Source: a virus. Taken from it: DNA of 64,000 bases. The position numbers and the translations under genes are program-made. The notes beneath the pieces are model-generated. The model ran no database searches. It worked only from the letters and a program-made list of their open reading frames with translations, and was not told the origin of the DNA. The stretch lies in the IMG/VR virus record IMGVR_UViG_3300037104_000796, positions 32,001 to 96,000 of that record; one strand, written 5' to 3'. Positions 16,614 through 63,278 of the stretch are shown piece after piece. How positions within the stretch are numbered: the first letter of the stretch is position 1; every line of letters starts with the position of its first letter.

Positions 16614-17264
16614 TTACTGTGAGTATATTTCGCCAGTTACATTACATATTCGTAATATAGTTGCTATGTCTGGAATTAATTTTGATCCTGTTATATGTAA
16701 GTCACCTTTAATTTCTTTAGGAAAATGTTCCAATGTGCCAATAGGATTATTTGACATATACAAATCTCCAATTTTTTCAGGCATAAATTCTAATGAATAC
16801 AAACTATTATCATTAATGTACACTTCACCTTCTATTTTTGTAGCTATTCCTTCTAATGATTCTAATCCGCAATTTGATGCAGCATACGCTCCTATTACCT
16901 GTTTTGGCCCGCCTATTAATCCTGAACTTTTAAGAGGATTGCCACTGCAGAAAAATGAACCCTGAACTAATTCAGGTCCACCTTTTAAATTTTCTAAACC
17001 ACAATTATTTACATGAAAACTTCCGTTAATGTGTGCAAATTTAATATACTCGGGAAATTCTTTAATTTGTTGATGCGAAAAAACAACTGAATCATCTCCG
17101 ATAATTCTCTTTTTGGGTGTTATTCTGTATTTATGTTTTGCTACGCCATGTTCACTCATCCATTTATGAATAAGTTCATCCATACCAATACCCATATTTT
17201 TTACAGGATCGCCATCTTCGGTGAACCCTAAATATTCATTTAAAGATTCTCGAACTAATTTCAT
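16614..17264 (-). CDS. Tagged-family protein with leucine-rich-repeat-like domain
   Basis: MKLVRESLNEYLGFTEDGDPVKNMGIG leader; repeats such as NCGLENLKGGPELVQGSF and NCGLESLEGIATKIEGEV. Confidence 0.75.
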   Translation of the reverse strand: MKLVRESLNEYLGFTEDGDPVKNMGIGMDELIHKWMSEHGVAKHKYRITPKKRIIGDDSVVFSHQQIKEFPEYIKFAHINGSFHVNNCGLENLKGGPELVQGSFFCSGNPLKSSGLIGGPKQVIGAYAASNCGLESLEGIATKIEGEVYINDNSLYSLEFMPEKIGDLYMSNNPIGTLEHFPKEIKGDLHITGSKLIPDIATILRICNVTGEIYSQ

Positions 17265-17265
17265 A

Positions 17266-18390
17266 TTATGCTATAATCATATAATCAAGTCTTACTGGAA
17301 AAGATTGTGGGTTAAATACATAAAATCCAGATATTAAATTTTCTACTTGTGACGATGCCGGGTCTTCAGCTGATAACCAAATTTGAAGAAGTCCTATTTT
17401 TTCCCATAAATTATATGAATTAACATAATCAAGATAATCTCCAGCACTGAATATTGCCGGATCGCAATTAACTTGTGAGTTTAATCCTACATCAACACTA
17501 CTAGTATGACTAATGAAGAATGATGATGAATCATAGGTTGCTTGAGTTTGAAATACTGAAACATCTAAAGCGTTTCCATTTATTGACGCGTCCCATAAAG
17601 ATACGTCTGTATATGTGGCAAAAGAACGAATAACACTAACATCAACAGGGGTAAAATATGTTAAATTATTCGTAACATGATTTACTTCTACAAATCTTTC
17701 TGAAAGTAAAATTCCATCAGGATAAGTTATTTTTAAAACATATCCTAACATTGCTCCATTTGGATATTTATATGCTGGAAGATCAGATGATGCATCATCT
17801 GGAAGAAGACCACCATAATACATCGTTCCTGTTGAAGGATTTGGAGTATTCCAAGTAGATGCATTAACTCTGGTTATATCGAAATAATATCCAGCTTTGG
17901 TACTTGAAAAGGATAATACACTAGCATCATATGATGCTTCTATATTAATTCCGTTATTGCCAAAAAGAATATTTAATGCTGTATCAAGAGAAACGCCAGC
18001 ATTATAATTTGATGATGCAGCAACGTATGTTGAAACATATCTAAAATTAGTGTAATAATTAATAGACATGTCTACACTCATAAAAGAATTATTATAACTA
18101 CTATCTAACAAAAAGTTTTGGGTTTTAAAACTAATGCCTTTTGTTAAACCAGCTATATATGTTACTTCTCCTGGCTCTAAAATTTTTGTTTGTATTGTCC
18201 ATGCATCGACATTTAACATTATGTCACCAAGATTCATAGCACCTAAAATGGTGTTACCAGAAACAATACCAACTTGATTTCCGGGTAAAAATTTAAAAAC
18301 ATCGTTTCCAGCACCGTTACTGTCAGGACACGGAGGTAAATCAGGAAAAATGTAATCGTTCGAAATATTATTAAAAAGGTCTTGATACAT
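17266..18390 (-). CDS. Hypothetical, probably virion structural beta-rich protein
   Basis: Ser/Thr/Asn/Tyr-rich, low Lys; late motif GAATAAATAA at 18410-18419; nine D-x-S tripeptides. Confidence 0.6.
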   Translation of the reverse strand: MYQDLFNNISNDYIFPDLPPCPDSNGAGNDVFKFLPGNQVGIVSGNTILGAMNLGDIMLNVDAWTIQTKILEPGEVTYIAGLTKGISFKTQNFLLDSSYNNSFMSVDMSINYYTNFRYVSTYVAASSNYNAGVSLDTALNILFGNNGINIEASYDASVLSFSSTKAGYYFDITRVNASTWNTPNPSTGTMYYGGLLPDDASSDLPAYKYPNGAMLGYVLKITYPDGILLSERFVEVNHVTNNLTYFTPVDVSVIRSFATYTDVSLWDASINGNALDVSVFQTQATYDSSSFFISHTSSVDVGLNSQVNCDPAIFSAGDYLDYVNSYNLWEKIGLLQIWLSAEDPASSQVENLISGFYVFNPQSFPVRLDYMIIA

Positions 18391-18458
18391 AATTACAGAA
18401 TTATTTTATTTATTTATTCAAGATTTAAAGATGCATATTGCTTTAACTCTTATTTCAT

Positions 18459-18481
18459 AAAAAAAGAGGCCATAGCCTCTT
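18459..18481 (-). terminator. Intrinsic terminator
   Basis: AGAGGC-CATA-GCCTCT hairpin with an A tract (T tract on the minus strand). Confidence 0.75.
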
Positions 18482-18782
18482 AATAATTCACAGATATTGT
18501 ATGATTACCACTATCCCATTCTTCTTCCGCATCAAAAGGATCATCTTCAACTCTTTCAGCATAAGGTTTAAGATCACTCCAATTCATGTTATTCTGAACC
18601 CAATCAAATATTTCAAATTCATCTTCTAACGCGTGATTTATTTCATCCAAATATTCTTGAGAATCTCTTTCATATCCATCAACTTCAGCATAATAATTTG
18701 CTCGTGATTCAGCTATTACAAATGCCGGTACTTCATAAGTTACACCTTTGTGGAATTTTATGATTAATTTTTTTTCTTTCAT
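18480..18782 (-). CDS. Small acidic hypothetical protein
   Basis: 100 aa, D/E-rich with several Trp/Tyr. Confidence 0.75.
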   Translation of the reverse strand: MKEKKLIIKFHKGVTYEVPAFVIAESRANYYAEVDGYERDSQEYLDEINHALEDEFEIFDWVQNNMNWSDLKPYAERVEDDPFDAEEEWDSGNHTISVNY

Positions 18783-18834
18783 ATTTTATCAAAATTTCTA
18801 TATTCTTTAGGATTTATTGGAATCCCGAATTTAT

Positions 18835-20454
18835 CTATTTTTGGTTCAAGTTTTTTTTTGGAATTGCTTTCGCGTCAATTACTTCAACACCGTCCAAAAT
18901 TACAGAAGCATAATCATCTTTAAGTTCTGGAGGCACCAGGATTGAATCTTGTGGATTCTCATTAACTATATTTAACGGAGTAATAGATTCCTTTTGCTTC
19001 TTTTTATCTATCTTCTCGAGTAACGCTATGACTTCGTCACCCTTAGAGAGTTTGTTGATCTCTTTAAGATTTTTTAACGGTTTTATTTTCTTTTCTTTTA
19101 GCTTTAGAGGATGTACGATTCTTTTTGTTTTTTGCGGAACCTTTACGGCCTCTTTTGGTAGAAGTTCCTGTTCTTTTTTTGGTTCAACCACTTTATTTTT
19201 ATCTTTTGGTGGTCGCCCTCGTTTTTTGATTTCTTTTTTTAAATTCTTATCAACTAACTCAAATTGCGGTAAATTTGCAGACGAAACAGGAGAAGTTTTT
19301 GGAAGTGAAGCAATTGTATCTACGTCAGTTGCTGTTGATTCATTCTCTAATTCTTCTGCATAATCATCAAGAAATTTTTCAATATCTTCAGATGTTTCTT
19401 CTTTACTGGTTGTTTTATCAATTGATTCATTTATTTCTTGAATAGCTTTTTCTGCTGCTGATTCATCATGAATTTCTAATGAATTATTAACATCAGGGGT
19501 TAGTCTTTCAGCCTCGCTATCCATATCATTTATCGCATCTTCTTCGATAGTAGTATTTTTGATATCTGTTTCTTTATCATCAATGATTTCACTCATTTCT
19601 GTACGAGGATTTTTTTCTCCTTTTAAAGATTGAGCAAATTCTTTAGTGGCTTCTTCTTCAGATTGCAAATTAATTTGAAAAGGCTTTTGAAGAACGGGCA
19701 ATCCATTCTCTTTATCAATTGGAGAATTTTTTTCTTTCGATGTTGCATTAGAAACTGTGTTAGCAAGAAGTTCATTTTTTAACGTTTCTAATTGTTCTTC
19801 ACGATCTGGAGCTGTAGATGGTTCTTCGAGAATCCAATCAGTTGGTTTTTCTTCTTTTTTAATGCCATCAACATATTCTTTAGACACACTATTATCGGAA
19901 ATAGGCAAGTTTTCAATAGGATAAGGAATAGATTCTTTTTCTTCTGGCTTTTCTTCTTTAGTCTCATTTTCTTCATTCATGAATTTCATATTCTGAGCAA
20001 CTAAAGCAGTCATACCTAAAGCAACAATAGGAAGTAAAGCACCTGATATCCACGATATAATCATTTGATATATTTCAGGATTTGATGATTGCACACCAAA
20101 TAAAATTGCTTTTTGCCAATATATCCAATCATTACTGCCGCTTTGAGCCATATATTTAAATGATGCATAAACGTTTGCAGTAACTTGTAAAGCAGTTAAA
20201 AGAAACATTAAAGCCCACGGCAAATATTTCCCTTTATTCTTTTCCGACATTAATATTGAAAACAATACTGATGCTTGACCTACTTCGTATGTCAAACCAA
20301 GAAGTACTGCTAAACTCATTGTATTTGCCAAGTGAAAGAATGTAATAGAGTGTAATGTTGATACAAACCCTACACACAAATACAAAAGCGCAAATGTTAT
20401 GATAAGTCCCCAATAGAGACCTCTGTTTGTAATTTTAAACTTTCCTAATTTCAT
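18835..20454 (-). CDS. Membrane protein: about 4 N-terminal TM helices plus long charged low-complexity tail
   Basis: Hydrophobic segments in aa 1-155, then acidic then basic disordered region. Confidence 0.75.
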   Translation of the reverse strand: MKLGKFKITNRGLYWGLIITFALLYLCVGFVSTLHSITFFHLANTMSLAVLLGLTYEVGQASVLFSILMSEKNKGKYLPWALMFLLTALQVTANVYASFKYMAQSGSNDWIYWQKAILFGVQSSNPEIYQMIISWISGALLPIVALGMTALVAQNMKFMNEENETKEEKPEEKESIPYPIENLPISDNSVSKEYVDGIKKEEKPTDWILEEPSTAPDREEQLETLKNELLANTVSNATSKEKNSPIDKENGLPVLQKPFQINLQSEEEATKEFAQSLKGEKNPRTEMSEIIDDKETDIKNTTIEEDAINDMDSEAERLTPDVNNSLEIHDESAAEKAIQEINESIDKTTSKEETSEDIEKFLDDYAEELENESTATDVDTIASLPKTSPVSSANLPQFELVDKNLKKEIKKRGRPPKDKNKVVEPKKEQELLPKEAVKVPQKTKRIVHPLKLKEKKIKPLKNLKEINKLSKGDEVIALLEKIDKKKQKESITPLNIVNENPQDSILVPPELKDDYASVILDGVEVIDAKAIPKKNLNQK

Positions 20455-20470
20455 AATATTTATTTTGTGT

Positions 20471-20782
20471 TTAATTTATTTTTTTCCACCCTTTTTCGTC
20501 AGTGTTAGGTGTGCATTCTTTTTCAATTGTAACATTTATATTTGCATAATCACCATATTTAATAGCTACAGCATCTTTAATAAACATTTCAAGATCAATA
20601 CCTTCAAATGGATTTGAATCTCCTAAGCATACAAATATTTCTTCTGTAAGTTTATTGAAATAAACATCACCATATTCTCCATTACAAATAATCGCAATAG
20701 CCTCAGCATATTCTTTTAATTTCCTAATATTAACTTTTTTGGACATAATTTCTTCATTCAAAGATTCTCTAATTAATTTCAT
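20471..20782 (-). CDS. Hypothetical protein with capsid-targeting-like leader (MKLIRESLNEE)
   Basis: Leader nearly identical to 17264; late-like AATAAATAAAA upstream. Confidence 0.75.
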   Translation of the reverse strand: MKLIRESLNEEIMSKKVNIRKLKEYAEAIAIICNGEYGDVYFNKLTEEIFVCLGDSNPFEGIDLEMFIKDAVAIKYGDYANINVTIEKECTPNTDEKGWKKIN

Positions 20783-20799
20783 TGTTTTATTTTATTTAT

Positions 20800-21357
20800 T
20801 TACCCTGGCCAAGGGCAATTGCCCGGAAGCCCGCATTCAGAACAAGTACAAAGCCCTAAAGTTTTTCCCTGGTCGCCTTTACAAGTTTTGCATGTTGAAG
20901 TTCTGCGAATATAATCTCGTAATTCAACGTAATCTTTTTGAAATTGTTCTGTTTGTCTTTTTTCACCTTTTATTTCAGATTCCAAATGTCCAATGTATGT
21001 TCCATCATCGCATGTGCAATAAACACAAATTTCTTCATCAAATAAAACAAATCCATCTTCATCATACAATACTTTTCCGTTCATAGGTTTATCACATGAT
21101 ACACGATACCAAGCTTTTAAACCTGCACAACGAGGACACACATTATATTTTCGAAAATCAAATTCTTTTCGATCAAGGTCTTCAATTATTGTGAAGTCTT
21201 TTATGTCTTTATTCGCATCTTTAAATACTTTATGTGATCTATAACTGTATAAATATTGGCCATCATTAGTAGTTCCTATAAAATGACCGCCAGCTAGATG
21301 CAAAAAAGATTTTACTACAAATGTATTCATACTATTGGATGATCGTAATTGAAACAA
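20800..21357 (-). CDS. Cys-rich hypothetical protein (multiple CxxC)
   Basis: CPRC, CVYCTC, CKTC, CTCSEC; true start may be the later MNTF. Confidence 0.6.
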   Translation of the reverse strand: MFQLRSSNSMNTFVVKSFLHLAGGHFIGTTNDGQYLYSYRSHKVFKDANKDIKDFTIIEDLDRKEFDFRKYNVCPRCAGLKAWYRVSCDKPMNGKVLYDEDGFVLFDEEICVYCTCDDGTYIGHLESEIKGEKRQTEQFQKDYVELRDYIRRTSTCKTCKGDQGKTLGLCTCSECGLPGNCPWPG

Positions 21358-21599
21358 TCTTCATTTGTACAGTAGTATTCAAGATCAGAAAGCCATGACT
21401 TTTTAACAATATTTGCATAGCATTTTGGACAAGCGCTTTCAAGTGTTGCCACTCTTTCAAAATCATTTACTGAAAGATCAGGATTATTTTTATGAAAATC
21501 TTGATCTGAAGAAAAATGATAAAGTTCTCGATTATCAATTCGAGATTTTCCTAAGGCTTTTCCGCCTTTAAGGATTTTATCGGATTTAATGATGTACAT
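21327..21599 (-). CDS. Hypothetical Zn-binding protein
   Basis: CPKC...YYCTNEDC. Confidence 0.6.
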   Translation of the reverse strand: MYIIKSDKILKGGKALGKSRIDNRELYHFSSDQDFHKNNPDLSVNDFERVATLESACPKCYANIVKKSWLSDLEYYCTNEDCFNYDHPIV

Positions 21600-21600
21600 A

Positions 21601-22088: not shown

Positions 22089-22121
22089 AAATTGAATTAT
22101 TTTTATTATATATTTGCTTAT

Positions 22122-22160
22122 ATTATATCAACAAAAAAGACCTAAGTTTTAGGTCTTTTT
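22122..22160 (-). promoter_or_regulatory. Fused terminator/promoter: hairpin AAAAAGACCTA-AAACT-TAGGTCTTTTT containing AAAACT-N17-TATAAT
   Basis: -35 at 22145-22150, -10 at 22122-22127, exact 17-nt spacer. Confidence 0.7.
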
Positions 22161-30104: not shown

Positions 30105-30779
30105 TTATTCGTCAAATGTTATGAATTCAAAATATTTATTCATGTTTTTTCGATCCGTTCTAAAAAAGTTAGTTTGATTAGCTTTCATGTTAGTTTCTGT
30201 ATGAAGACGTTTTATCGTATATAAAACAACTTTTACATCTTTTAATTTATCTGAAGTTTTAACATAATATACTGTTGCAAGGTTTTCATCGTATTCCGCT
30301 TTTAATACTATGATGTATTGTTTTTTATCAATTGCCTGATAATCATGTGAAGCGCCAAATCCCATATTTGGTATAAAAATTTTTATAAGCTTATTGCCTC
30401 CATTCGTATCCATGACTTCAAATTCATGTTTAGCACGAAGTATACTTCCTAATCGTAAATTATCAATGTTTCCTGTGCCAATACCCATATCTGTTATAGG
30501 ATCGCTTTCATCATTAAATTTTTCATGTAAATTTTCTTTAACTAATTTTGCTGTTTCTAAAGTATCATAAATTCTGTATTGACGATCTTTTTTACGCATT
30601 TCTATAAACTCTTTAATTTTGGCCTTTGTTCCTACAAATGTTCTATCAAATTCTTGATTATCCCAATTTCTAGTCCAAGCATAATCTATAGAATATATTT
30701 TTTTATCTATTCCTATTTTCATATCTTTAATAGGATCGCTTGCATCACTGAATTTTTCAAATACGAATTGAGCTCTCAT
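30105..30779 (-). CDS. Tagged-family protein with two tag copies (two-module polyprotein)
   Basis: VFE-KFSDASDPIKDMKIG at the start and LHE-KFNDESDPITDMGIG internally. Confidence 0.8.
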   Translation of the reverse strand: MRAQFVFEKFSDASDPIKDMKIGIDKKIYSIDYAWTRNWDNQEFDRTFVGTKAKIKEFIEMRKKDRQYRIYDTLETAKLVKENLHEKFNDESDPITDMGIGTGNIDNLRLGSILRAKHEFEVMDTNGGNKLIKIFIPNMGFGASHDYQAIDKKQYIIVLKAEYDENLATVYYVKTSDKLKDVKVVLYTIKRLHTETNMKANQTNFFRTDRKNMNKYFEFITFDE

Positions 30780-31237
30780 TATGTTTTAAAGAATTTTTCA
30801 TTAGGTTTTGGAAGTCTTGTTAATACCCATTTTTTATTATTTGGATTTTTATGACAATATGTGAGAAGTATTCCTTGAGGATATCTTTCTCCATGATTAC
30901 CATTATTACTACCTATAAGACGAGTATTCCAATGACCACGTGTTCTTCTTGCTGATGTGTCATACATCAATTTAGTTTTAGGATTGTAATTTCTAACGGG
31001 TTCTTTTTTCCAAAATTTTTCAGGATTATGTCCTTCACATTCAGTCCAAATGAAAAACTGTATTTCTGTAAGTGACGCACCTTCTTCGCCTTTTTCTTCA
31101 ATGAATTTTAGAATTTTCCAAGCTGCTCTATTCAATTGACTTTCAGGATACCCGATGTTCATATCTTTTATTGGATCTGTTACATCTGCAAACTTTTCAT
31201 TAAGGCATTCGTTGACATATTTTGCTTTCATTCGCAA
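30779..31237 (-). CDS. Tagged-family protein
   Basis: LNE-KFADVTDPIKDMNIG; late motif at 31249-31258. Confidence 0.8.
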   Translation of the reverse strand: MRMKAKYVNECLNEKFADVTDPIKDMNIGYPESQLNRAAWKILKFIEEKGEEGASLTEIQFFIWTECEGHNPEKFWKKEPVRNYNPKTKLMYDTSARRTRGHWNTRLIGSNNGNHGERYPQGILLTYCHKNPNNKKWVLTRLPKPNEKFFKT

Positions 31238-31764: not shown

Positions 31765-32025
31765 AAGCCGGACATTGAGGCCGCCGGCAGTTTCCTGTAA
31801 ATGAGTGCTTCTTAAGCAGCCATTTTCATTTCATAAACTGTATTGTCGTTTATTTACGTATCAAGTACTATCTTTACTACTTCCTTATCGCTGTCAAATC
31901 TAAGTCATCCCCTAAAAACCGTACTAACGCGACGGGTTAGCGCAATAAAAGTGATAGTGGAGATGCCGGTTTCCGCCACCGGGTCCAAACGATAGTCTCT
32001 CGCAAATAGCTTTTTGCAAAGCGCG
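31765..32025 (-). ncRNA. ssrA: Circularly permuted (two-piece) tmRNA gene
   Basis: Minus-strand order: T-arm CCGGT-GGCGGAA-ACCGG plus acceptor 3' strand CATCTCC-A (31965-31958); then a 45-nt intervening segment; then the 5' strand GGGGATG (G1=31912, G3.U70 Ala identity) with ACTTAGATTTGAC; then the tag frame AATAAAC-GAC...GCT GCT TAA (31847-31812). Outer boundaries are approximate. Confidence 0.88.
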
Positions 32026-33260: not shown

Positions 33261-35075
33261 TTACAATCCTAAATCTGTTCCACCTGTGTCTCCACCTGTT
33301 TCACCACCAACTTCTCCACCACCTGCTTCACCACCCGGTTCTTCAGGTGCTCCGCCGCCTAAGTCCATTCCTGCACCGGCTCCAAAGTCCATTCCTCCAC
33401 CGCCTCCGCCAAGGTCTCCGCCGCCAGCTCCTTCATCTCCTGTACCTTTAGTAGCATTTACACGTTTAACAGCATCTGCAATACGGGTAAGTTGTTCTCT
33501 TCTTTCTTTCTTATATCTTTCATTGATCTTGATATCTTCATCAGTAAAGTTCATGTATCTTTCAACCAAGAATTTAGGGTCAAAATACATACCTTCATTT
33601 GTGATATTTCCTTCACCATCAACTTCTGGCTGATGTACACCCATAAGGGTATTGACCATTTCAGCACCTTTGCCATCAATATCTCTTTTCTTAGCTTCTG
33701 TAAATAAGTTTTCTTCAACGAATTCAAGACTGATTGCACCTCTTAAAGATTTATCTTTAATGAATACAGGGTGTTTGAGACAGAACTGAATCCATGTAGG
33801 TTTCATTAAAATTTCTTGCATAATAGAACGAATTCTATTGATGAAATAATTGAAACGAATTTCTTCTCTTGCAATACCTTCGCCACCTGATGACCAATTT
33901 GCTCCACCACCGCCTTCATCTCCAGTTGATTGGAATCTGTCTTTTGGAATTTTAGTTTCGATAATGAATCTCTTCCAGAAATAATCAAGTGCCATAGTTC
34001 CTGATAAGTCATATCCTGCAGGTTGAATAGAATCTATAATTGTTTCTTGACCTTCTTTTGAAGGTATAATGTATTGTTTTGCGAATGAGAAGTTTGGTGT
34101 TCCGTTAATTGTAACTTCACCACTATGATAATCAATTGTGATATCCTCTTTGTACATACCACGTAATTCAGAAAGTCTTGTTCTTGCTTTTACTTCTGAT
34201 TGTGTACCGATTGGAACTACAATTTTCATACGATATTGTGAGTTAACAACGTTCCAAATAATACGTGAATTTTCCATTGTACGTAACATATTGAATGCTC
34301 TTACAAGTCTTTCAACGTATGATAATCTTGATATGAAGTTTCCCCTAGCCCATGATATGTAAATTACGTTTCCATCAACTAATTCTCTTTGTCTTTCAGC
34401 ATCACCTCTAAACTGAATCCATACTCGATATTCATTATCATTTTCATCTTTACGAATTTCTGGTTCAAGAGAGCAAGGATCAAGTTCTTTAAAACCTAAA
34501 ATGTTTTTTGCATCTTCACTGTTTTCACCATCGTAAATAATTTCAAATGCCAAGAATCCATCAATAAGGAATTTTTTAGTGTAATGCCATCCATCATGGC
34601 CTTGATTAAATCCGAATGCATAATAAACTTTCTTATATGCTTCATTAAGGTCATCAACAATTTCTTTAGCTTTTTCAGCTTTAAGAACTGATTTAAGTTT
34701 TTGCGTATTAGGATAAGCAAAAAAGTTATTATCGTCCTGAACAATTGTTTCGTCTGCAATAACTTCGATAACGTGTTCTATTTCTCCATTCATAGCAAAT
34801 CTACGAAGGAAATCTCTTCTTGTAGGATATTCTTTATCAAAGAAAGCAATAAATTCTTTTGCTCCAATGTCCATACCTGATGCCAACTGATGTTGACCAT
34901 AAAGGCTATACATTGAATCTTCTTGTACTTCAGTAATACCAATTGATTTAGATTGCTTAATAATATTTTGATCCCATCGCATTCCGATAATTGACAAATA
35001 ACGAATATTTCGTTGAATGTTATCTATAAAAGAACGAGGTCCTCTGTCTAAATTTCTAAGTCCGAATCCGGCCAT
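33261..35075 (-). CDS. Portal protein (T4 gp20-like)
   Basis: EIEHVIEVIADE, FLIDG.L.F, SYVERLVRAFNMLRTMENSRIIW, IAREEIRFNYFINRIR; Gly/acidic C-tail; late motif at about 35093-35103. Confidence 0.9.
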   Translation of the reverse strand: MAGFGLRNLDRGPRSFIDNIQRNIRYLSIIGMRWDQNIIKQSKSIGITEVQEDSMYSLYGQHQLASGMDIGAKEFIAFFDKEYPTRRDFLRRFAMNGEIEHVIEVIADETIVQDDNNFFAYPNTQKLKSVLKAEKAKEIVDDLNEAYKKVYYAFGFNQGHDGWHYTKKFLIDGFLAFEIIYDGENSEDAKNILGFKELDPCSLEPEIRKDENDNEYRVWIQFRGDAERQRELVDGNVIYISWARGNFISRLSYVERLVRAFNMLRTMENSRIIWNVVNSQYRMKIVVPIGTQSEVKARTRLSELRGMYKEDITIDYHSGEVTINGTPNFSFAKQYIIPSKEGQETIIDSIQPAGYDLSGTMALDYFWKRFIIETKIPKDRFQSTGDEGGGGANWSSGGEGIAREEIRFNYFINRIRSIMQEILMKPTWIQFCLKHPVFIKDKSLRGAISLEFVEENLFTEAKKRDIDGKGAEMVNTLMGVHQPEVDGEGNITNEGMYFDPKFLVERYMNFTDEDIKINERYKKERREQLTRIADAVKRVNATKGTGDEGAGGGDLGGGGGGMDFGAGAGMDLGGGAPEEPGGEAGGGEVGGETGGDTGGTDLGL

Positions 35076-43698: not shown

Positions 43699-46440
43699 TT
43701 AAATTTTATTAGTATTCTTGAGTTCTTTTTTTAAAAAATCAGTCCATTCTCTTCTTGTTTGTTCATCTAAATCAGGATCACTTTCTATTTCCCAAATCCA
43801 GCCTTCCGGTCCGGACAACCATGACGCATCGCCTTCTTTAACTTTTTTATCAGCATAATTTTGAATAATTTTAAGTAAGCCAATGCGCATATCTCTTATA
43901 GGATCAGATTCTTCTGCAAAGGTTTCATTCATACGTAACTTAAAAATCCATCTATTTTGAATAGCCTTTTGTTTGTCAACATTATAAAATGCAGCTAATA
44001 TATGAATAAGTGCTTGTTCTGATCCTGTAAAAATTAATCCGGCAATACCTGATTTATATTCATCTTTCATTTTATATGTTACGCCTGATTTTTTAAAGAA
44101 GTCTCCAACTTCGTTGCCTTCTATACTTTCAATATCATTTTTGTCGGGTTTGAATTTGGTCATTCCATATAATGGAATTGTTCGATATCCTGAGCCAATA
44201 CCCATATCTTTAATAGCATCTGTATCTTCTTTGAATTTTTCATTTATCATATTGCCTTTATCGTCACACATCCATGATTGTAATTCAGGGTGAAGTTTTT
44301 TCAATGCCACGTGTACTTGTTCATAATTTACTACTTGAGGTTTGCTATTAACAGTTAAATACTTTTGAACATATTTTGCTAATCGATTCAGTTTTGATTC
44401 TAAATTTACTTTAAAATAGAGATAATAACTGCTATTAGTGTCATTTAAAATATTTTCTGGAAGATTTTTTATTTTAAGAATAGCTGATAACATTTCTGCG
44501 ATAAACATATCCATTGCTTTTTGAGATTTAAAATCATGAGGACCATATAAACCAATTCCCATACTATGAACTGGGTCTCCTTCTTCTGAAAACTTTTCAT
44601 TAACATGTGCATCAGCCATCACAATTGTTAATCGATTTAATTTTCTGGTCATTGCATCAACAGCAACACCTTTATCATTTTTAAAGCCTTTTACGTTAAT
44701 CATATGTTCTATTTCATCAAAAAATTTATTCTTTGAGTATTCTTTACATATAATCGTATATACTGTATTCCCTAATGCATTTTTATCATATTCTACTGTT
44801 GTTTCATCACCAAACAAAACATAACGAATGTAATCAATGTAATCAACTCCACCGTGTACGTATTTAACTGGAAATAAATTCATTATCTCTTCTTTGAAGT
44901 GATTAGCTCCAATATTCATATCAGCTATAGCATCACCTTCTTCTGAGAATTTTTCATTTACAGATTCTTTTAGGTTTTTTATTTTCCAGTTAGGAACGAT
45001 CTCAAGATATTTTTCGATAAACTCTTTATCTAATGACCATTGATGATAAACTAACTTATTTAAATGTTTTAATGATTTTCTTAAATCCATAAGATCATCG
45101 CAACTATAATAAAAAACACTGGTAATGTCTCCATCAAGATTTCTGAATATTTTATTAAGAATAACATATGAATTTTTAGGATGACTTTGGTTGATAGTTT
45201 TTTTAACTCGTACAATACTTCCTCGTTTTGCATCATCCCAATCGATATCGCCTATACCCATATCGTGAATTGGATCAGAATCAATTACAAATTTTTCATT
45301 TACATTTTTCTTTTCAAAATAAGGATTGACATCTAAGAAAAATTTAATTTCCAACATCTCTGCAACCTTTGTAAGAATTTTAAGTCTTATTTTAGGATCG
45401 TCATAGTCCTTCATTTTCATCTCAAGAGCAGTTATTTCTTCAAAAGATTTTTGAGGAGTTATACGTGGATGTTCAATTAAATTTTTAACAGTATGATACA
45501 TTACTCTTACAAGAGGTACTGCGTATCCTTCGTATTCTTTTGAACATGTTTTTTTGTAATATAATCGATATAAGTCCATGCAACTTCCCGGCGGAATCGA
45601 ATACAAAATCTTTTTTAAACGCTCAATACCACCAATATGCATATCTCTTATGGGATCGCCAACTTCTTCTGAAAATTTTTCGTTAAGGTCAGGATATTTC
45701 CACGATTTTAATTCAGGATGTTTTAATTTGAAAACATATGAAAAATCTAGCCAATCAAATATGTCTTTTCCGTCAACTCTAACGAAATCCTTTATATATT
45801 TTCTTAATGTATTAGCACAACGTCGTTGTTCGGCATAATCTTCTGCAAAAAATATGAAAATATTTTCTTCTGGATCATTTAAAATATTTTCAGGAATTTC
45901 ATCTATATCAAGTATTGCTGTTAAATTTTCAACAATAAATTCATACATTTTATTCGGCGTATCAAAATCTTTATGCGCATACAATCCTATTTTCATATCC
46001 TTTATAGGATCCGATTCTTCTTTGAATTTCTCATTGACTGATTCATTTACATTTATATCAATGCCAAAATGTTTTTTAAGAGCATTAGCAATATCTTTCT
46101 GTATTTCATATTTAGATGGATAAAGCCCCTCTACCAAATCAACAATGCCATTAGCCTTTTTTTTACAAGCTCTTTCAAATGCAATTTGAGGAGAATTTCC
46201 TTTAATTAAATATTTTAAAATATCACATAAACAATACATTTTTTGCCAAACACATTTGTCGCGTCTATTGATAGGTTTTTTTCTATCATCAAAATAGTCA
46301 TAATATACGCGAGATGGAGCTGCATCATTTATCTTTTTTGCATGTTCTTTCCATATTTTACGAGCGCCAATTCCCATATCCTTAATAGGATCAGATTGAT
46401 CTGTGAATTTTTCGTAAAGATTTTCTTTGATGGGTTCCAA
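43699..46440 (-). CDS. Eight-module tagged polyprotein (TTG start)
   Basis: Eight copies of xE-KF....DP[IV].DM.IG at about 120-aa spacing; late motif GAATAAATAA at 46456-46465. Confidence 0.85.
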   Translation of the reverse strand: MEPIKENLYEKFTDQSDPIKDMGIGARKIWKEHAKKINDAAPSRVYYDYFDDRKKPINRRDKCVWQKMYCLCDILKYLIKGNSPQIAFERACKKKANGIVDLVEGLYPSKYEIQKDIANALKKHFGIDINVNESVNEKFKEESDPIKDMKIGLYAHKDFDTPNKMYEFIVENLTAILDIDEIPENILNDPEENIFIFFAEDYAEQRRCANTLRKYIKDFVRVDGKDIFDWLDFSYVFKLKHPELKSWKYPDLNEKFSEEVGDPIRDMHIGGIERLKKILYSIPPGSCMDLYRLYYKKTCSKEYEGYAVPLVRVMYHTVKNLIEHPRITPQKSFEEITALEMKMKDYDDPKIRLKILTKVAEMLEIKFFLDVNPYFEKKNVNEKFVIDSDPIHDMGIGDIDWDDAKRGSIVRVKKTINQSHPKNSYVILNKIFRNLDGDITSVFYYSCDDLMDLRKSLKHLNKLVYHQWSLDKEFIEKYLEIVPNWKIKNLKESVNEKFSEEGDAIADMNIGANHFKEEIMNLFPVKYVHGGVDYIDYIRYVLFGDETTVEYDKNALGNTVYTIICKEYSKNKFFDEIEHMINVKGFKNDKGVAVDAMTRKLNRLTIVMADAHVNEKFSEEGDPVHSMGIGLYGPHDFKSQKAMDMFIAEMLSAILKIKNLPENILNDTNSSYYLYFKVNLESKLNRLAKYVQKYLTVNSKPQVVNYEQVHVALKKLHPELQSWMCDDKGNMINEKFKEDTDAIKDMGIGSGYRTIPLYGMTKFKPDKNDIESIEGNEVGDFFKKSGVTYKMKDEYKSGIAGLIFTGSEQALIHILAAFYNVDKQKAIQNRWIFKLRMNETFAEESDPIRDMRIGLLKIIQNYADKKVKEGDASWLSGPEGWIWEIESDPDLDEQTRREWTDFLKKELKNTNKI

Positions 46441-48206: not shown

Positions 48207-48245
48207 ATTGTATGATAAAAAAAGGCTTAAGTTTTACTTAAGCCT
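48207..48245 (-). promoter_or_regulatory. Fused terminator/promoter (AAAACT-N17-TACAAT) upstream of the DinG helicase
   Basis: Hairpin AGGCTTAAG...CTTAAGCCT plus T7; -35 at 48230-48235, -10 at 48207-48212. Confidence 0.7.
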
Positions 48246-48485
48246 GTATTTTTTATGATGTGTTACTTTTTTATTTAGCCAATCTCGTAATTTAACATTT
48301 AATTTGTACAAATCCTCTTCATTGTGGATACGTGGATAAACAGTTTGTGTAATATGCGCTACTACGTTATCAAAATAATGATCAACAACTACACCCGATC
48401 TACTTGGACGACCAATACCCATATCTTTAATGGGATCAGATTCTTCTCTAAAATCTTCGTCAATATGTTCTTTTACAATATTCAT
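48234..48485 (-). CDS. Tagged-family small protein
   Basis: MNIVKEHIDE-DFREESDPIKDMGIG. Confidence 0.8.
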   Translation of the reverse strand: MNIVKEHIDEDFREESDPIKDMGIGRPSRSGVVVDHYFDNVVAHITQTVYPRIHNEEDLYKLNVKLRDWLNKKVTHHKKYRLK

Positions 48486-50318: not shown

Positions 50319-50933
50319 TTAAGTGTATTTTACTTGTTTTCTTTCTCGAGAATTTTGATTATGTATTGCACCAAATTTATCTGACCAATACCCTTGTTCA
50401 GCACAATGTTTACAAACCCCGTTTTCAAATTCACCAGGGTGGGTAGGTCTTCCACAAGCTTCACATTCAAGTTCTTCGTGTGAAATATCTGGAGATGGTT
50501 TATCACTGTCTTCATATTGAAGTCTTGTATCATTGTATAAACCTGTTACAGGTTGATTTCTGGCATTATTTGTAAAAGGCAAGACATGAACGCCTTCACT
50601 AATTTTTGAAATGATATAAGATTCCGGAACTCTGAGACCATTAATCTGATAATCAATTCTTCCCATAAATCCTCTTTGACGTTTGGAAATTCTTCCTATT
50701 TGATCTTTTCCTCTTTCAACTTTTGATGTTGCAGACATTTCAGATGCTTTATGCCAAGTTTGATATTTAACTTTATCACCTTTTTTGTATTTAGGTTTAG
50801 GATGACTTTTGTCATCATCAGCAGCATCTCCAATATAATTTGGATTCTCTAACGGATACTTTTGAGAAATAGGTTTGTTACCATCATTTCTAAAAGGCAT
50901 TTGCATATTTTCATGTACTAATTTAGCTCGCAT
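50319..50933 (-). CDS. Leader-bearing two-module protein (KOW/SH3-like plus Zn ribbon)
   Basis: MRAKLVHE leader; two PF.N...N.P units after VHE and ISE; KYKKGDKVKY; CEACG...CKHC. Confidence 0.7.
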   Translation of the reverse strand: MRAKLVHENMQMPFRNDGNKPISQKYPLENPNYIGDAADDDKSHPKPKYKKGDKVKYQTWHKASEMSATSKVERGKDQIGRISKRQRGFMGRIDYQINGLRVPESYIISKISEGVHVLPFTNNARNQPVTGLYNDTRLQYEDSDKPSPDISHEELECEACGRPTHPGEFENGVCKHCAEQGYWSDKFGAIHNQNSRERKQVKYT

Positions 50934-51282
50934 CTTTTATAGTTAATTTTTCATCTCCAAGAATATTGTAATAATTTCCGTCTTCATTTACTACACTTAC
51001 TGAACTTTCAAATCCATTTCTTTCTTTTGTATTTACTATTTTTTTAACTTTGATAGTCATATTATCCCAACTACCTCTTCGTCCTTTCCATGGACTTAAT
51101 CTTCCAGTAATTGTTTTTCCAACTAAAGAATCATTTAAAAGTTTTATCCATTCGTTTGCTGCTCTATCTTGGATTTCTGCATGCACATCATTAAGTTTTA
51201 CACCACCAATTCCCATATCTCTTATAGGATCAGAATCTTCTGTAAACTTTGATAATTGTTCATTAATGGTTTTAGCTCGCAT
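50923..51282 (-). CDS. Tagged-family protein
   Basis: MRAKTINEQLS-KFTEDSDPIRDMGIG; late motif at 51297-51306. Confidence 0.8.
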   Translation of the reverse strand: MRAKTINEQLSKFTEDSDPIRDMGIGGVKLNDVHAEIQDRAANEWIKLLNDSLVGKTITGRLSPWKGRRGSWDNMTIKVKKIVNTKERNGFESSVSVVNEDGNYYNILGDEKLTIKDAS

Positions 51283-58362: not shown

Positions 58363-58445
58363 ATGAATATATATTATATTAGTTTACTTTTATATGATGA
58401 AAAAAATAAATAGATTTCGAATGAACTTTAAAAAACTGTTAAATT

Positions 58446-59345
58446 ATGAAATGCCAAGAATGTAATAAAGAAGTAAAAAATTTAAAAGCTTTATCCACCC
58501 ATATTCAATTTAAACACGGAAATAATAAAAAGGAATATTATGACAAATGGTTAAAAACGAGTAAAGAAGGATTTTGCAAAATGTGTGGAAAACCAACCGA
58601 ATTTTATATTCTAAATTATGGATATAAAGTATATTGTTCTAATAAATGTATGAGCGACGATTATGTTAAAGAAAAAACTCTGCATAATCCGATGCATACT
58701 AATTCTGCTAAATTAAATCAACGAAATACAAATTTAAAACGATATAATGTAACACAAAATACAAAACGACCTGAAATTAAGCAGCAAATAATTGATACAA
58801 ATAAAAAATTATATGGTGTTAACAATGTTTCTCAAGATCCAACTATAAAAGCAAAAGCTTTAAAATCAAGAGAGGATACGAATATGAAAAATCATGGTGT
58901 TAAAAGTAGTTTTTCTGTTCCGTACGTTCGAACTAAAATTAAAAGAGCACTTATGTTAAATCATGGAGTTGAAAATCCTATGCAAAATCAAGAAATATTT
59001 AACAAATCGCAAAAAACTCGTTTTCTTTTACATAAATTTAAAAATAAAGATTTATATTATCAAGGTTCATATGAATTACATTTTTTAGAAACATTTTTTG
59101 ATAAATTTCCAGATATTACTAGAGGCCCTTCTATTAAATATGTGTTTAATAATAAAATTAAAATACATCATCCAGATTTTTATATTCCAAGTTTAAATTT
59201 GATTATTGAAATTAAAAATTCATATTTATATAAAAAATATTATGATTCTATTAAAGCTAAAGAAAAAGGCGCTCTAAAAGTCGGATATAAATACATAATT
59301 ATTGTAGAAAAAAATTATGATAAATTTTTAGATTCAATTAATTGA
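58446..59345 (+). CDS. Putative homing endonuclease: C2H2 finger, YGV.N repeats, PD-(D/E)XK C-terminus
   Basis: CQEC...LSTHIQFKH; YGVNNVSQ/HGVENPMQ; HHPDFYIPSLNLIIEIK. Confidence 0.78.
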   Translation: MKCQECNKEVKNLKALSTHIQFKHGNNKKEYYDKWLKTSKEGFCKMCGKPTEFYILNYGYKVYCSNKCMSDDYVKEKTLHNPMHTNSAKLNQRNTNLKRYNVTQNTKRPEIKQQIIDTNKKLYGVNNVSQDPTIKAKALKSREDTNMKNHGVKSSFSVPYVRTKIKRALMLNHGVENPMQNQEIFNKSQKTRFLLHKFKNKDLYYQGSYELHFLETFFDKFPDITRGPSIKYVFNNKIKIHHPDFYIPSLNLIIEIKNSYLYKKYYDSIKAKEKGALKVGYKYIIIVEKNYDKFLDSIN

Positions 59346-59575
59346 GTTAATGCTTTTTCTAATAGTATTGCTTTTCTGCCCTGTTTCCACGCTATATTAA
59401 TAATCATATCAATATCTACATCACCATTATTAAATTGTTTCCTGATATGTTCTTTCCAATGTTCACCGAATTGTGCAGTAACAAATGGTTTCTCGGCTTT
59501 TTTATCTATTTCTTCAATAAGTTCTTCAGTATTCATTTTTATAAGTGTTTTATTTGTTATATTCATTTTTCCCAT
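59315..59575 (-). CDS. Hypothetical protein (start uncertain)
   Basis: Short ORF on the local coding strand. Confidence 0.55.
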   Translation of the reverse strand: MGKMNITNKTLIKMNTEELIEEIDKKAEKPFVTAQFGEHWKEHIRKQFNNGDVDIDMIINIAWKQGRKAILLEKALTQLIESKNLS

Positions 59576-59838
59576 AAATGTTTACTTACTTTGTAACTCG
59601 AATATTTTCCTTTTTCTAAATATCCTAACTTAACCAATTCGTCAAGATCATCAGATAAAAAAGATGATAGTCTTACACGAGTTTTCATAAAAGCTTCATG
59701 TGTTTTGAATTCATCGTCATATCTTCTTTCAGAATCTAAAAAGGAAACGATTTCAAATAAGAGGTCTATAAGTGTTGGATTTTCAATTATCCCAATAAGA
59801 TTTTTGATTTTTACAACATTGTGATTTACGGGCTTCAT
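59563..59838 (-). CDS. Hypothetical protein, winged-helix-like
   Basis: LDELVKLGYLEK...SYKV wing pattern. Confidence 0.55.
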   Translation of the reverse strand: MKPVNHNVVKIKNLIGIIENPTLIDLLFEIVSFLDSERRYDDEFKTHEAFMKTRVRLSSFLSDDLDELVKLGYLEKGKYSSYKVSKHLWEK

Positions 59839-59854
59839 GTTTAAGTGGTTTAGA

Positions 59855-59895
59855 TTTATAATGAAAAAAAGGTCTATAGTTTTGCTACAGACCTT
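59855..59895 (-). promoter_or_regulatory. Fused terminator/promoter (AAAACT-N17-TATAAA) after uvsX
   Basis: Hairpin AGGTCT.TAG...CTA.AGACCT plus T7; -35 at 59878-59883, -10 at 59855-59860. Confidence 0.7.
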
Positions 59896-59916
59896 TAATA
59901 AAATGTTAAAAAATGA

Positions 59917-61275
59917 TTATATCTCGTAGGGAGTAGGTTCTTCACTAAATTCTCCAAAATCTTCAACACCATTATCATCACCAATGTTAATATCTCCCAT
60001 TTCAGCGTCATCCATAAGATCACCTGTAACTTCAGCTAAATCTTCAAGAGATTCGATACTTGGAAGCATAAAAGTCTTCTTGATAATATTATCATCTAAC
60101 AAATGAAGAACTTCTTCAGTAAATACTTTTGGTGTATATAGTTCAGCTATAGGAACTTCTCCGTGTAAATGTTCACAAACTAATTTACGAGCAGTATCTT
60201 TAGATTGAGCATATCGAGTTCCATCATCTCCAATTTTTAATCCTTCTTGGGGAATTAAAAAATCACGGCATTTCTTTTGTTCTGCCGCAGGAAGTTTATT
60301 GAATTCTTTTGGAGTTATCATATTTCCTCTTACTATTCCGCATGTGTCCCAATTTACGAATTTTTCAAGTCCTACGTAAGGATTTGGTTTTTTGTAGAAT
60401 GGAATATGAATTTGAACTTTAATAGGACGTGCAAATCTTTGTTTGAAAGGATGAACTGTAACAACAATACCAACTTTAGTGTATTTGTCAAGTCCTTGAT
60501 TTTTTACATGTTCTTCTGAATCTTTATCAGAAAGTTTGGATTTTGAAAGAACAAAAATAATTGATGAATTGTATTTTGTACCACCTCCACCAGAAATTTC
60601 ATCGCCAGGTCTAAATCCGCCAATAGCTGCATATACGTGATTGCATATAATAAATGGAATGCCATTCTTAGCAAAATCAGTTCCGATAACTCTAAACATT
60701 CTACGAATAGATTGTTGTTTAGTCATATCACGCTTTCCAGAACCTGCCGTTGTGTCTTCTTTTTCTTTCGTTGAAGATAAATTTCCAAGAGAATCAAGAA
60801 CTACCATAATTTTTGGAGGAGTTTTTCCCTGTCCTCTTATAGTTGCAATTGTTTCATTTAACTTAGCAGCTAAAGTAGCAAATTCTTCAATTGTGTTAAC
60901 ATTTTCAATACGAAATTTTGTGGTGTCAATTCCAAGACGTTTAACAAAGTCAACGTCAATTGAACCTTCTGAATCATAATAGATCGGAAAATAATCCATT
61001 GCTTGCGCACTTCTAACAATAGAACACGCAAGATATGTTTTTCCTGTTCCTTCTTGTCCTGCAAACATTAATGATCTTCGATTCGGCATACCACCAAATA
61101 ATGATCCGCTTAGTGCAGCGTTAAGAATGTACGAACCTGTGGGAATCCACTCATCGATTTTTGCATAAATACTATCCTCTATGATTGCTCCGTCTGGGGA
61201 GAATTTGCTCAACATATCATTGAGTTCACTGAATGAGGATTTTTGAGACTTTTCTGTAGATACTCGTTTGGCCAT
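59917..61275 (-). CDS. uvsX: RecA-like recombinase (T4 UvsX-like)
   Basis: IPTGSYILNAALSGS, AGQEGTGKT, YYDSEGS, VLDSLGNL, RDMTK, NHVY, SGGGG. Confidence 0.93.
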   Translation of the reverse strand: MAKRVSTEKSQKSSFSELNDMLSKFSPDGAIIEDSIYAKIDEWIPTGSYILNAALSGSLFGGMPNRRSLMFAGQEGTGKTYLACSIVRSAQAMDYFPIYYDSEGSIDVDFVKRLGIDTTKFRIENVNTIEEFATLAAKLNETIATIRGQGKTPPKIMVVLDSLGNLSSTKEKEDTTAGSGKRDMTKQQSIRRMFRVIGTDFAKNGIPFIICNHVYAAIGGFRPGDEISGGGGTKYNSSIIFVLSKSKLSDKDSEEHVKNQGLDKYTKVGIVVTVHPFKQRFARPIKVQIHIPFYKKPNPYVGLEKFVNWDTCGIVRGNMITPKEFNKLPAAEQKKCRDFLIPQEGLKIGDDGTRYAQSKDTARKLVCEHLHGEVPIAELYTPKVFTEEVLHLLDDNIIKKTFMLPSIESLEDLAEVTGDLMDDAEMGDINIGDDNGVEDFGEFSEEPTPYEI

Positions 61276-61295
61276 AATTTAATATTTTCTTTATT

Positions 61296-61324
61296 ATTCT
61301 ATTAAATTATAGCCAAAAAGTTTT
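61296..61324 (-). promoter_or_regulatory. AAAACT-N17-TAGAAT promoter for uvsX
   Basis: -35 at 61319-61324, -10 at 61296-61301. Confidence 0.6.
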
Positions 61325-61349
61325 AACAATGTGTATAATAATTTGACAA

Positions 61350-62225
61350 TTATGCCATACCTGTATTCTTTAATTTTTGTGCCATTTTGTAAGGTTGATC
61401 TTGACTATAATCAGTTTTGATAGCATCGTAAGCTTGTACAAGTTGTTGTAATCCTGAAATATTTATGCCAGCAACTAATTTTTTTCCAATTTCTTCTTTA
61501 CTAATATTGAATGAATATCCTCTTTTTATATCTGCGATAACATTTTCTAATGCTTTATCAAGAGTAGCACCCATTTGTGTTTTTATTTTATCAATTTCTA
61601 TTACAAGTTTTTTATCTAATACAGGTTTTTTCAAATCGCCATATTTTTTAGCTCTTGCTTTTTGTGCAACTGAAGGAATTGGATCACCCCATTGTGGTTT
61701 GTTTGTTTGTAACGGGTCTACTTTTTGTCTTTCTGTACCTCTTTGTAATGATAATTCCTGACGTTCTGCATCTTTTGAAATAGCTTCGACCGTTAAATCT
61801 TCAAAATCTTGATTCTGCATCATTTTATCGATAATATCAATGATTTGATTCATATCGAAAAAATCATTAGTAACTGATCTACGTCTTCTTCTCCCTGCAT
61901 AAAATTGTTCACCTTTAGCTTCAAATTTTCCTTTTCCGGGTGTAACTTCAAAAATACGAAATTTATTTCTTTTATCGTCATGAGGCGCAATCATAAAAAT
62001 TGGTTCGCCATCTTTTTTTCCAATAACAGCTATATTAGTTGCATCTTTTAAAGCTTTCTTTATCGTGTTAGGATCGAATTTCTTTAATGGGGTGATTGTA
62101 CTATTTTCTCCGGCATAATCATAACCATATCCATGTCCTTTGCCATAGCGATATGCTAAATATGTAATCCAGTGTTTTGGCAAACCCTTAAATACCGTGG
62201 CTTCATTAATATTTTGAATATTCAT
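61350..62225 (-). CDS. Hypothetical basic protein with short leader (MNIQNINE)
   Basis: I-N-E leader; RRRRR patch; co-transcribed with tagged genes. Confidence 0.7.
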   Translation of the reverse strand: MNIQNINEATVFKGLPKHWITYLAYRYGKGHGYGYDYAGENSTITPLKKFDPNTIKKALKDATNIAVIGKKDGEPIFMIAPHDDKRNKFRIFEVTPGKGKFEAKGEQFYAGRRRRRSVTNDFFDMNQIIDIIDKMMQNQDFEDLTVEAISKDAERQELSLQRGTERQKVDPLQTNKPQWGDPIPSVAQKARAKKYGDLKKPVLDKKLVIEIDKIKTQMGATLDKALENVIADIKRGYSFNISKEEIGKKLVAGINISGLQQLVQAYDAIKTDYSQDQPYKMAQKLKNTGMA

Positions 62226-62234
62226 TTATATGAA

Positions 62235-62924
62235 TTATTTTACGAATTGACGAAATGGAAATTTAACATAATATGTGCCATAGTTTTTGTATAAACTTAC
62301 ACCATTATTTCTTGCAGTTGTTGCTATTCTTGACATTGTACTACCCAAATATCTTTTATTATAGCCGGTAACATTCTCGGGTCCTCCTGAAGTATAGCCA
62401 CTATAACTTGCTCCTTCAACATGAGGAATATCAACGAATAAACCTTCATTACTCTCATAAGGATATGGCGACATAGTACTTATACGTACATCCATTCCAA
62501 AAACTCTTTTCATATGTTTAACAAACTTTTCTGCGAAAGGCATTACAATTGCTCTTTTTCTATCGAGTTCGGCTTCGTATTTTGCTTTATCATCAGCAAC
62601 TTTTTCTTTTTTAACGCTGCCGGCTTCTTCATGTCCTAACGATACTGCTTTTTCAAGAAATATCTGAGCAACTCTTGAATCTTTACCTGCAATTTGTGCA
62701 GCAGCTAAATAACGACGATAGGCTTTTTCTTTATCTTTGATTAACTTACACATCGTTTCAGCTAGATCAGTAGCAGAAACATGTCTTTTCTGTTGAGCTT
62801 TTGTAAAAATATCATTAACTCTTTGGATATCTTTAGCATCAGGTTTTTGTCCAATACCTAAATCATGAATAGGATCTGAATCTTCTACAAATTTTTCATA
62901 CAATTGTTCTCTTACTAATTTCAC
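62235..62924 (-). CDS. Tagged-family protein, paralog of 62934 with extra C-terminal domain (GTG start)
   Basis: MKLVREQLYE-KFVEDSDPIHDLGIG; LAETMCKLIKDKEKAYRRYLAAA. Confidence 0.8.
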   Translation of the reverse strand: MKLVREQLYEKFVEDSDPIHDLGIGQKPDAKDIQRVNDIFTKAQQKRHVSATDLAETMCKLIKDKEKAYRRYLAAAQIAGKDSRVAQIFLEKAVSLGHEEAGSVKKEKVADDKAKYEAELDRKRAIVMPFAEKFVKHMKRVFGMDVRISTMSPYPYESNEGLFVDIPHVEGASYSGYTSGGPENVTGYNKRYLGSTMSRIATTARNNGVSLYKNYGTYYVKFPFRQFVK

Positions 62925-62933
62925 AATCTTGAA

Positions 62934-63278
62934 TTATTTTATACCAGCAAGTTCGCCAGCTCTTTTAAGAAATACTCTTGTTACGTCCCAATGCTCGCCT
63001 CCAATCTTGGCAGCTGCAACATAACGTCTATATGCTTTTTTAGGGTCTTGAATTAATTTGCCCATGGTGGTTGCTAGTGAAATTTCTTTTTTAGAATTTC
63101 CTCCGGCTTTTGAAACAATAGCTTCGACACGCATTCTATCTTTTGGTTCAGGACTGACCCATCGATATTTTTTTTGTAATTCGTCTCTGTATTTTGGTAA
63201 TAGGCCGATGCCTAAATCCATGATAGGATCACTTTCTTCTGAAAACTTTTCGTATAACGATTCTTTTACAAGTTTCAC
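62934..63278 (-). CDS. Tagged-family protein (GTG start)
   Basis: MKLVKESLYE-KFSEESDPIMDLGIG; LATTMGKLIQDPKKAYRRYVAAA. Confidence 0.8.
   Translation of the reverse strand: MKLVKESLYEKFSEESDPIMDLGIGLLPKYRDELQKKYRWVSPEPKDRMRVEAIVSKAGGNSKKEISLATTMGKLIQDPKKAYRRYVAAAKIGGEHWDVTRVFLKRAGELAGIK

Follow-up and report, generated by a model that had tools for sequence, protein, structure and literature searches.

A conserved peptide tag behind a predicted cleavage site in Lak-related phages and its linkage to a MoxR ATPase and metallopeptidase-vWA gene pair

Tagged genes in the window

We analysed a stretch of viral DNA of 64,000 nucleotides (hereafter the window; positions 32,001 to 96,000 of IMG/VR record IMGVR_UViG_3300037104_000796), in which 8 minus-strand open reading frames (ORFs) encode proteins sharing a 15-residue peptide, the tag, located behind an N-terminal leader of 8-11 residues that ends in hydrophobic-x-E. 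Six-frame scans recovered 16 tag copies in these ORFs (1, 2, 1, 8, 1, 1, 1 and 1 in order of position), exactly as counted in a first-pass annotation made from the sequence alone. The pattern given there, DP[IV]xDM/LxIG, fits 12 of the 16 copies, but 4 deviate from it, 2 with D-A instead of D-P and 2 with S or N instead of the second D. Moreover, the family, described as window-wide, reaches beyond the window, with 7 further tagged ORFs on the contig, which in total carries 24 tag copies in 15 ORFs. The tagged ORFs of the window are the following:

16614..17264, minus strand: tagged leucine-rich-repeat (LRR)-like protein, 216 residues; leader ends at E10; tag 17184-17228; first gene of a three-gene cassette
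30105..30779, minus strand: two-module tagged ORF; tags 30711-30755 and 30477-30521
30779..31237, minus strand: single-module tagged ORF; tag 31151-31195
43699..46440, minus strand: polyprotein of 913 residues with eight modules of 78-127 residues, each starting with the site and the tag; tags 46366-46410, 45985-46029, 45631-45678, 45250-45294, 44908-44952, 44551-44595, 44194-44238 and 43879-43923
48234..48485, minus strand: tagged ORF, 83 residues; tag 48411-48455
50923..51282, minus strand: tagged ORF, 119 residues; tag 51205-51249
62235..62924, minus strand: tagged ORF, 229 residues; tag 62850-62894
62934..63278, minus strand: tagged ORF, 114 residues; tag 63204-63248

The consensus reads hydrophobic-[N/Y/F/D]-E followed by the tag, K-F-x-E-x-S-D-P-I-x-D-[M/L]-G-I-G. 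All window copies lie 0-3 residues behind hydrophobic-x-E, in agreement with the placement at or just after [LVIM]-x-E reported previously. Among tags of this form, designated dialect A to distinguish it from the lineage variants described below, the first D is conserved in 100% and the second in 94%, and the [ML]-G-I core is present in 84%. The 24 contig copies score 36-60 bits against a position matrix, with the next best segment scoring -2, and a degenerate DNA pattern matched 14 of the 16 window copies versus 0.00 matches in 100 shuffles.

A search with the tag profile matched 1,926 protein clusters (at 50% identity), and in one complete genome 62 of the 458 genes are tagged. The densest case seen is an 84-kb fragment, G002, with 58 tags, about 50 of which lie in a single 22-kb array of translationally coupled genes around a helicase (G002:C1:100-22862, L041-L042). 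In an 843-residue protein of unknown family (G000:C1:102038-104569), a single tag site is located just before the last 92 residues. No sequence match to the tag was found in 50,697 annotated phage records, searches of Pfam, PHROGs and solved structures did not recognise it, and its profile matched no solved protein chain. Literature searches, which were limited, returned nothing relevant on the motif strings and no report of a conserved tag after cleavage, of dialects or of a MoxR link. The exact pattern, which is narrow and could miss variants, has only 2 matches in 185,579 GTDB genomes, both on short, phage-like contigs whose genes match this phage group, and a cellular origin was accordingly rejected. 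These 2 contigs (L056 and L057), binned in metagenome-assembled genomes of Peribacteria and Woesearchaeota, are probably mis-binned phage DNA.

Peptide-level conservation of the tag

Synonymous variation among the tag codons had been noted in the first pass and extends beyond the window. At shared residues, codon identity is 0.58 on the source contig, compared to 0.55 expected from genome codon usage, and the same test gave 0.65 versus 0.64 and 0.60 versus 0.58 in 2 relatives, that is, approximately background in all 3 genomes. Agreement with the consensus is as good for internal copies as for N-terminal ones (10.0 and 9.7, 10.9 and 10.6, and 10.4 and 10.7 of 12 in the 3 genomes, respectively). 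The sequence data indicate that the tag is under selection at the peptide level. The alternative, in which selection keeps a DNA recombination site for cassette shuffling and the peptide is a by-product, is in keeping with the variation of module order between orthologous polyproteins, the borders of which fall at tags, and with codon choices that are genome-specific in some cases, such as AAG in 79% of the G002 tags versus 17% genome-wide. However, with nearly invariant residues and synonymous identity only at background in the 3 genomes, a pure DNA repeat was rejected, and we regard the recombination-site explanation as very improbable; any shuffling at tags would rather be a secondary advantage.

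The leader and the predicted cleavage site

The sheath, tube and portal of the source contig are T4-like, and the portal is approximately 40% identical to those of the Lak megaphages and of LR756500.

33261..35075, minus strand: T4-type portal gene, which places the phage near the Lak megaphages

Among named phages, the Lak megaphages are the closest relatives of the source phage, which belongs to a group of uncultured giant phages. Because the source contig (162 kb, approximately 40% complete) is devoid of capsid and protease genes, results on the capsid protein and the protease come from G001, a complete relative of 405 kb with a 77% identical portal and 88 tags. G001 encodes an S77 protease fused to the scaffold and a gp23-type capsid protein, 48% identical to that of Lak, which displays L-N-E followed by A at residue 43; all 24 homologues, the most distant at approximately 34% identity, retain this E. 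The protease-scaffold protein ranks first in the genome for [LVI]-N-E sites, with 10 versus 1.25 expected. The capsid site and the enrichment of sites in the scaffold lend independent support to the T4-like targeting leader and cleavage site suggested by the first-pass annotation, and the site before the tag matches the predicted maturation site of the capsid protein. By contrast, MKLVRESLNE, presented there as the shared leader sequence, is restricted in its exact form to 16614-17264.

In T4, gp21 cleaves after L/I-x-E, and the first 10 residues are enough for packaging (PMC9026906). The tagged proteins resemble T4 IPI-III and Alt in having a leader of about 10 residues that ends in hydrophobic-x-E, which in T4 is cut by gp21 (PMC9026906, PMC9958956, PMC12373910), in being accompanied by a T4-type S77 protease and by a gp23-type capsid protein that bears a site of the same type, and in being small, basic and variable accessory proteins. 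The small size, basic character and solubility of the modules make it probable that they are head cargo comparable to the T4 internal proteins. Overall, we consider it probable that the leader loads the protein into the prohead, that the T4-type protease cuts at the site and that the modules constitute head cargo.

A copy of the mature capsid N-arm was found directly behind such an E in an unrelated, non-capsid protein of 4 genomes (G000:C1:160436-161578, outside the window; G059:114797-115756; P0031; and P0043). The copy is internal, following hydrophobic-x-E, and the protein has a HAD-like N-terminus in G000, P0031 and P0043; the P0031 copy is 52-60% identical to capsid residues 43-90. In T4, the capsid N-arm shifts from the inside to the outer surface during expansion (PMC9958956). 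The N-arm copy could be a shell-binding mimic.

Tagged modules and polyproteins

The slot corresponding to 43699-46440 contains 6, 8 or 10 modules in 3 phages, in differing order, and polyproteins of 2-10 modules are common. Internal tags are often preceded by relic leaders, including the internal tag of 30105-30779, as expected if 2 tagged genes had fused, suggesting that internal tags result from fusion of tandem tagged genes. Altogether, we collected 349 modules with a median length of 109 residues and a median isoelectric point of 8.8, which form approximately 100 clusters; a membrane-like segment was found in none of them, compared to 33 of 256 other small proteins. The claim that the domains downstream of the tag differ holds for most of them but not for 2 paralogous pairs, 62235-62924 and 62934-63278 (50% identity) and modules 2 and 6 of the polyprotein.

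Over 97 tagged ORFs, ankyrin repeats (15 ORFs) are the sole confident Pfam families; most modules match nothing, and no enzyme family was matched by Pfam. Besides ankyrin, LRR-like proteins form a large family among the tagged proteins, with the model of 16614-17264 giving weak LRR matches alone (E >= 0.19). A small number of tagged homologues contain HAD, 2H and DUF6267 domains and, most modules being unannotated, there may be enzymes among them. Fold searches with polyprotein module 2 (PDB, Atlas and a wide search) returned no match (best Z, 3.6), which is not proof of a new fold. In 2 structure models, the folded domain does not include the tag, which forms a low-confidence segment containing a single short helix (predicted local distance difference test, pLDDT, of 45-69 for the tag and mostly 85-97 for the adjoining domains). 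As modelled, the tag is an element separate from the folded domain.

Tagless relatives and lineage dialects

The leader also occurs without the tag. Leader-only genes but no tag are found in G003, G004 and G005, with portals 79-83% identical, and in G059 (323 kb), and the domain of 62934-63278 is leader-only in the relative G025 (43% identity). Depending on the pattern used, roughly 10-20 leader-only genes are present on the source contig itself, for example:

20471..20782, minus strand: leader-only gene, no tag

Relatives and paralogues with the leader alone, the equal conservation of internal copies and the placement of the tag outside the folded domain in the 2 models all speak for the first-pass idea that the tag has a second job.

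The dialects share a hydrophobic-G-[IV]-G core, which is preceded by F-E-R-G-x-D-P in dialect B, S-G-L in C, D-D-L in D and D-K-L in E, and they roughly track the capsid-protein clades. The homologue of 50923-51282 in a dialect B phage bears the B tag. Within the LRR-like family of 16614-17264, the tags of dialects A, B and E fall at the same position of the alignment and are thus homologous, and this family is likely to have been the source of the tag. In G015 (L210-L212), which has no G-I-G tag, proteins homologous to tagged modules start with F-K-P-K-[ST]-x-x-E (genes near 18126, 18696, 20071, 39236, 50707 and 53328), possibly a second tag system.

The MoxR/DUF2201-vWA cassette

The tagged LRR-like gene 16614-17264 is followed, in order, by the other 2 genes of its cassette:

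14927..16597, minus strand: DUF2201_N metallopeptidase plus vWA protein, 556 residues; leader-like N-terminus with I-N-E, no tag; candidate tag receptor
13229..14893, minus strand: MoxR-type AAA+ ATPase (AAA_5), 554 residues; Walker A and B intact; leader, no tag

The DUF2201-vWA protein has an intact HExxH motif and an intact MIDAS (an adhesion site dependent on a metal ion; DxSxS-T-D), with H121, E122, H125, D419, S421, S423, T490 and D515 invariant in 16 homologues, and the leader E23 of the ATPase is invariant in 18 homologues. The label of HNH endonuclease attached to the former protein in PHROG 1314 and several RefSeq phage records is contradicted by Pfam (DUF2201) and by the motifs. Downstream of the ATPase, a conserved gene (12565-13236) encoding a leader followed by a glycine-rich stretch occurs in relatives both with and without tags.

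In 22 of 23 close loci (approximately 17 distinct phages, 2 dialects), a tag is carried by the gene immediately upstream of DUF2201, whereas the background in 5 tag-bearing contigs counted is 7-38% of genes; the third dialect has the same upstream arrangement. In the syntenic slot, the 3 cassette genes occur either as a set or not at all; loci lacking them show no dialect A tag, while most cassette-bearing contigs are also tagged outside the cassette. The genomic location of the cassette differs among dialects A, B and E (3 places), and in B and E it again lies among tagged genes. G059, which is 80% complete, is devoid of the tags, the LRR family and the MoxR/DUF2201 pair. The neighbour-gene tree implies approximately 5 gains or losses, at least 2 of which are forced. 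A search with gene 17266-18390 retrieved no loci. Complex prediction for the DUF2201 protein with the tag peptide gave a score of 0.02 (mark 0.32), the fold of the partner being uncertain, and is evidence neither for nor against docking. The inner capsid, portal and tail, put forward in the first pass as docking partners of the tag, receive no direct support, and the comparative signal instead points to the MoxR/vWA-metallopeptidase pair at 13229-16597.

Other features of the window

ARAGORN detected no tRNA or tmRNA in the window. The adjacent ORFs 8984-9739 and 9736-10770 share approximately 20 near-identical N-terminal residues, beyond which the first continues as an endonuclease-like protein; the second we take to be a thymidylate-synthase-like gene. 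This arrangement suggests insertion of a homing endonuclease that duplicated the start of the thymidylate-synthase-like gene.

Discussion

From the motif, its peptide-level conservation, the shuffling of modules, the dialects, the intact catalytic motifs and the gene linkage, we infer a course of packaging, cleavage, binding and ejection, with possible targets, for the tagged proteins. We tentatively propose, as a possibility short of an even expectation, that the tag docks cleaved modules, by whatever mode, onto the MoxR ATPase and metallopeptidase-vWA pair. The leader would load the cargo, the ATPase and the vWA-peptidase into the prohead, the pair, both proteins of which bear leader-like N-termini, probably being packaged too. 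The T4-type protease would then cut after hydrophobic-[N/Y/F/D]-E, freeing each module, including the units of polyproteins, with the tag first. Once released, the tag, which is proposed to be a short, acidic helix ending in G-I-G, would dock on the vWA-peptidase of the MoxR machine, where a conserved acid of the tag could complete the vWA metal site; MoxR-associated vWA domains are known to bind targets via an acidic residue (PMC9976466). The machine would either remodel the cargo for ejection or, after co-injection, act on host targets, in which case ankyrin, LRR-like and other modules would be interchangeable target adaptors. Indeed, with ankyrin repeats as the sole confident Pfam families, the tagged proteins may be substrate adaptors. 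Poxvirus ankyrin/F-box proteins combine a short docking motif with a variable repeat domain and serve as adaptors. The likeness to F-box-type adaptors is one of logic only, namely a shared docking motif, a variable repeat domain and a proposed single catalytic machine; unlike those adaptors, the phage proteins come without a ubiquitin system, and the Pfam F-box gave no match. The full version of this model, a packaged MoxR unfoldase and its metallopeptidase-vWA partner armed by dozens of tag-docked adaptors and aimed at host defence proteins at injection, we hold to be unlikely.

Several observations weigh against the packaging and docking scheme. Most of the contigs compared are fragments, which limits the linkage to the MoxR pair; the upstream gene is tagged in none of 8 distant DUF2201 loci, and one close locus, L359, has merely a degenerate tag upstream. 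Contigs of dialects C and D are tagged, with no DUF2201 in fragments of 85 and 130 kb (of approximately 400), and the dialect C tag has no acidic residue. The neighbour-gene tree is weakly resolved, its bootstrap unsettled. The linkage may also stem from shared ancestry, if the N-terminus of the MoxR operon's LRR gene gave rise to the tag, whose spread then had a different cause, and a MoxR plus peptidase-vWA pair in other jumbo phages (group 2.2) has been proposed as a probable virion-assembly chaperone (PMC7824862). As regards packaging and cleavage, the upstream regions of tagged genes show no enrichment of a putative late-promoter motif (21% versus 24%), and the bodies of the modules no depletion of L-N-E (39 versus 38 expected).

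Other roles for the tag account for part of the evidence. As a shell anchor, the cleaved tag would attach to the inside of the HK97-fold capsid in the manner of an encapsulin peptide or an N-arm mimic and stop small proteins from leaking during maturation. Encapsulin targeting peptides are likewise short and portable, with a hydrophobic-G-hydrophobic anchoring core in an HK97-fold shell system (PMC7925596), the mature capsid N-arm, which likewise contains G-hydrophobic-G, is reused in this clade by another protein, where it follows a predicted cleavage site, and the dialects roughly follow capsid clades. However, the encapsulin peptides described there are C-terminal and bind an encapsulin (PMC7925596), whereas the tag is N-terminal after cleavage, with F and D-P before its core; 16% of tags have another residue in place of the middle glycine, and the capsid proteins are 71-84% identical across dialects and tagless contigs, so that the shell explains neither the presence, the absence nor the dialect of the tag. 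The link to the MoxR pair is also left unexplained, and we consider an anchoring role unlikely. Doubtful to a similar degree is the possibility that the tag is the prime-side half of a long packaging or processing signal, strengthening binding to the core or protease and without a function once cleaved, with each module keeping it so that each junction is cut. This would account for the constant position 0-3 residues behind E and for conserved internal copies without a second function, but the capsid protein, the scaffold sites and the leader-only genes have no tag, whole lineages live without it, and 10 residues suffice for packaging in T4 (PMC9026906).

We regard it as quite unlikely that the tag directs its protein, once injected, to a host component (a chaperone, a protease or a membrane site) or, during ejection, to the portal or tail channel. 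Such an address would suit a free N-terminal motif on soluble modules, and the dialects could follow hosts; yet nothing in the analysis ties the tag to portal or tail genes, and the source portal is about as similar to the portals of tagless phages as to those of tagged ones (77-86%).

The tagged proteins also differ from known systems. Unlike the T4 Ip1-3 proteins, which are alike in the leader only (PMC12373910), they carry 15 conserved residues after the cut, and, in contrast to T4, each genome has dozens of such genes, the polyproteins comprise up to 10 modules, the folds include ankyrin and LRR-like ones, and there is the linkage to the MoxR pair. As in the MoxR/vWA systems of jumbo-phage group 2.2 (PMC7824862) and NorQ/NorD (PMC9976466), an AAA_5 ATPase lies beside a DUF2201_N plus vWA protein with intact motifs. 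By contrast, the clients reported in these two papers are single complexes or structural proteins, with no portable tag for many proteins described in either (PMC7824862, PMC9976466), and here both genes have leader-like N-termini. Polyvalent proteins of phages and conjugative elements are also multi-domain and thought to be injected and released by peptidases, but they are largely enzymes, often with an embedded peptidase (PMC5512222), whereas here Pfam matched no enzyme family over 97 tagged ORFs, most modules matching nothing, and the junctions bear one fixed motif.

The leader and the protease-jointed polyproteins follow the T4 precedent. What appears to be new, judging from limited literature searches, is the optional tag, its lineage dialects on a common core and its tracking of the MoxR ATPase and metallopeptidase-vWA pair. 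The tag makes it testable how T4-like phages handle head cargo once the leader has been removed: natural tagged and untagged variants, several dialects and a candidate receptor can be studied with recombinant proteins, without phage culture. The tag also marks a large set of proteins that are likely to be injected. If the adaptor model is true, these phages would have a new means to attack many host proteins with one enzyme, a phage counterpart of the F-box adaptor logic without ubiquitin.

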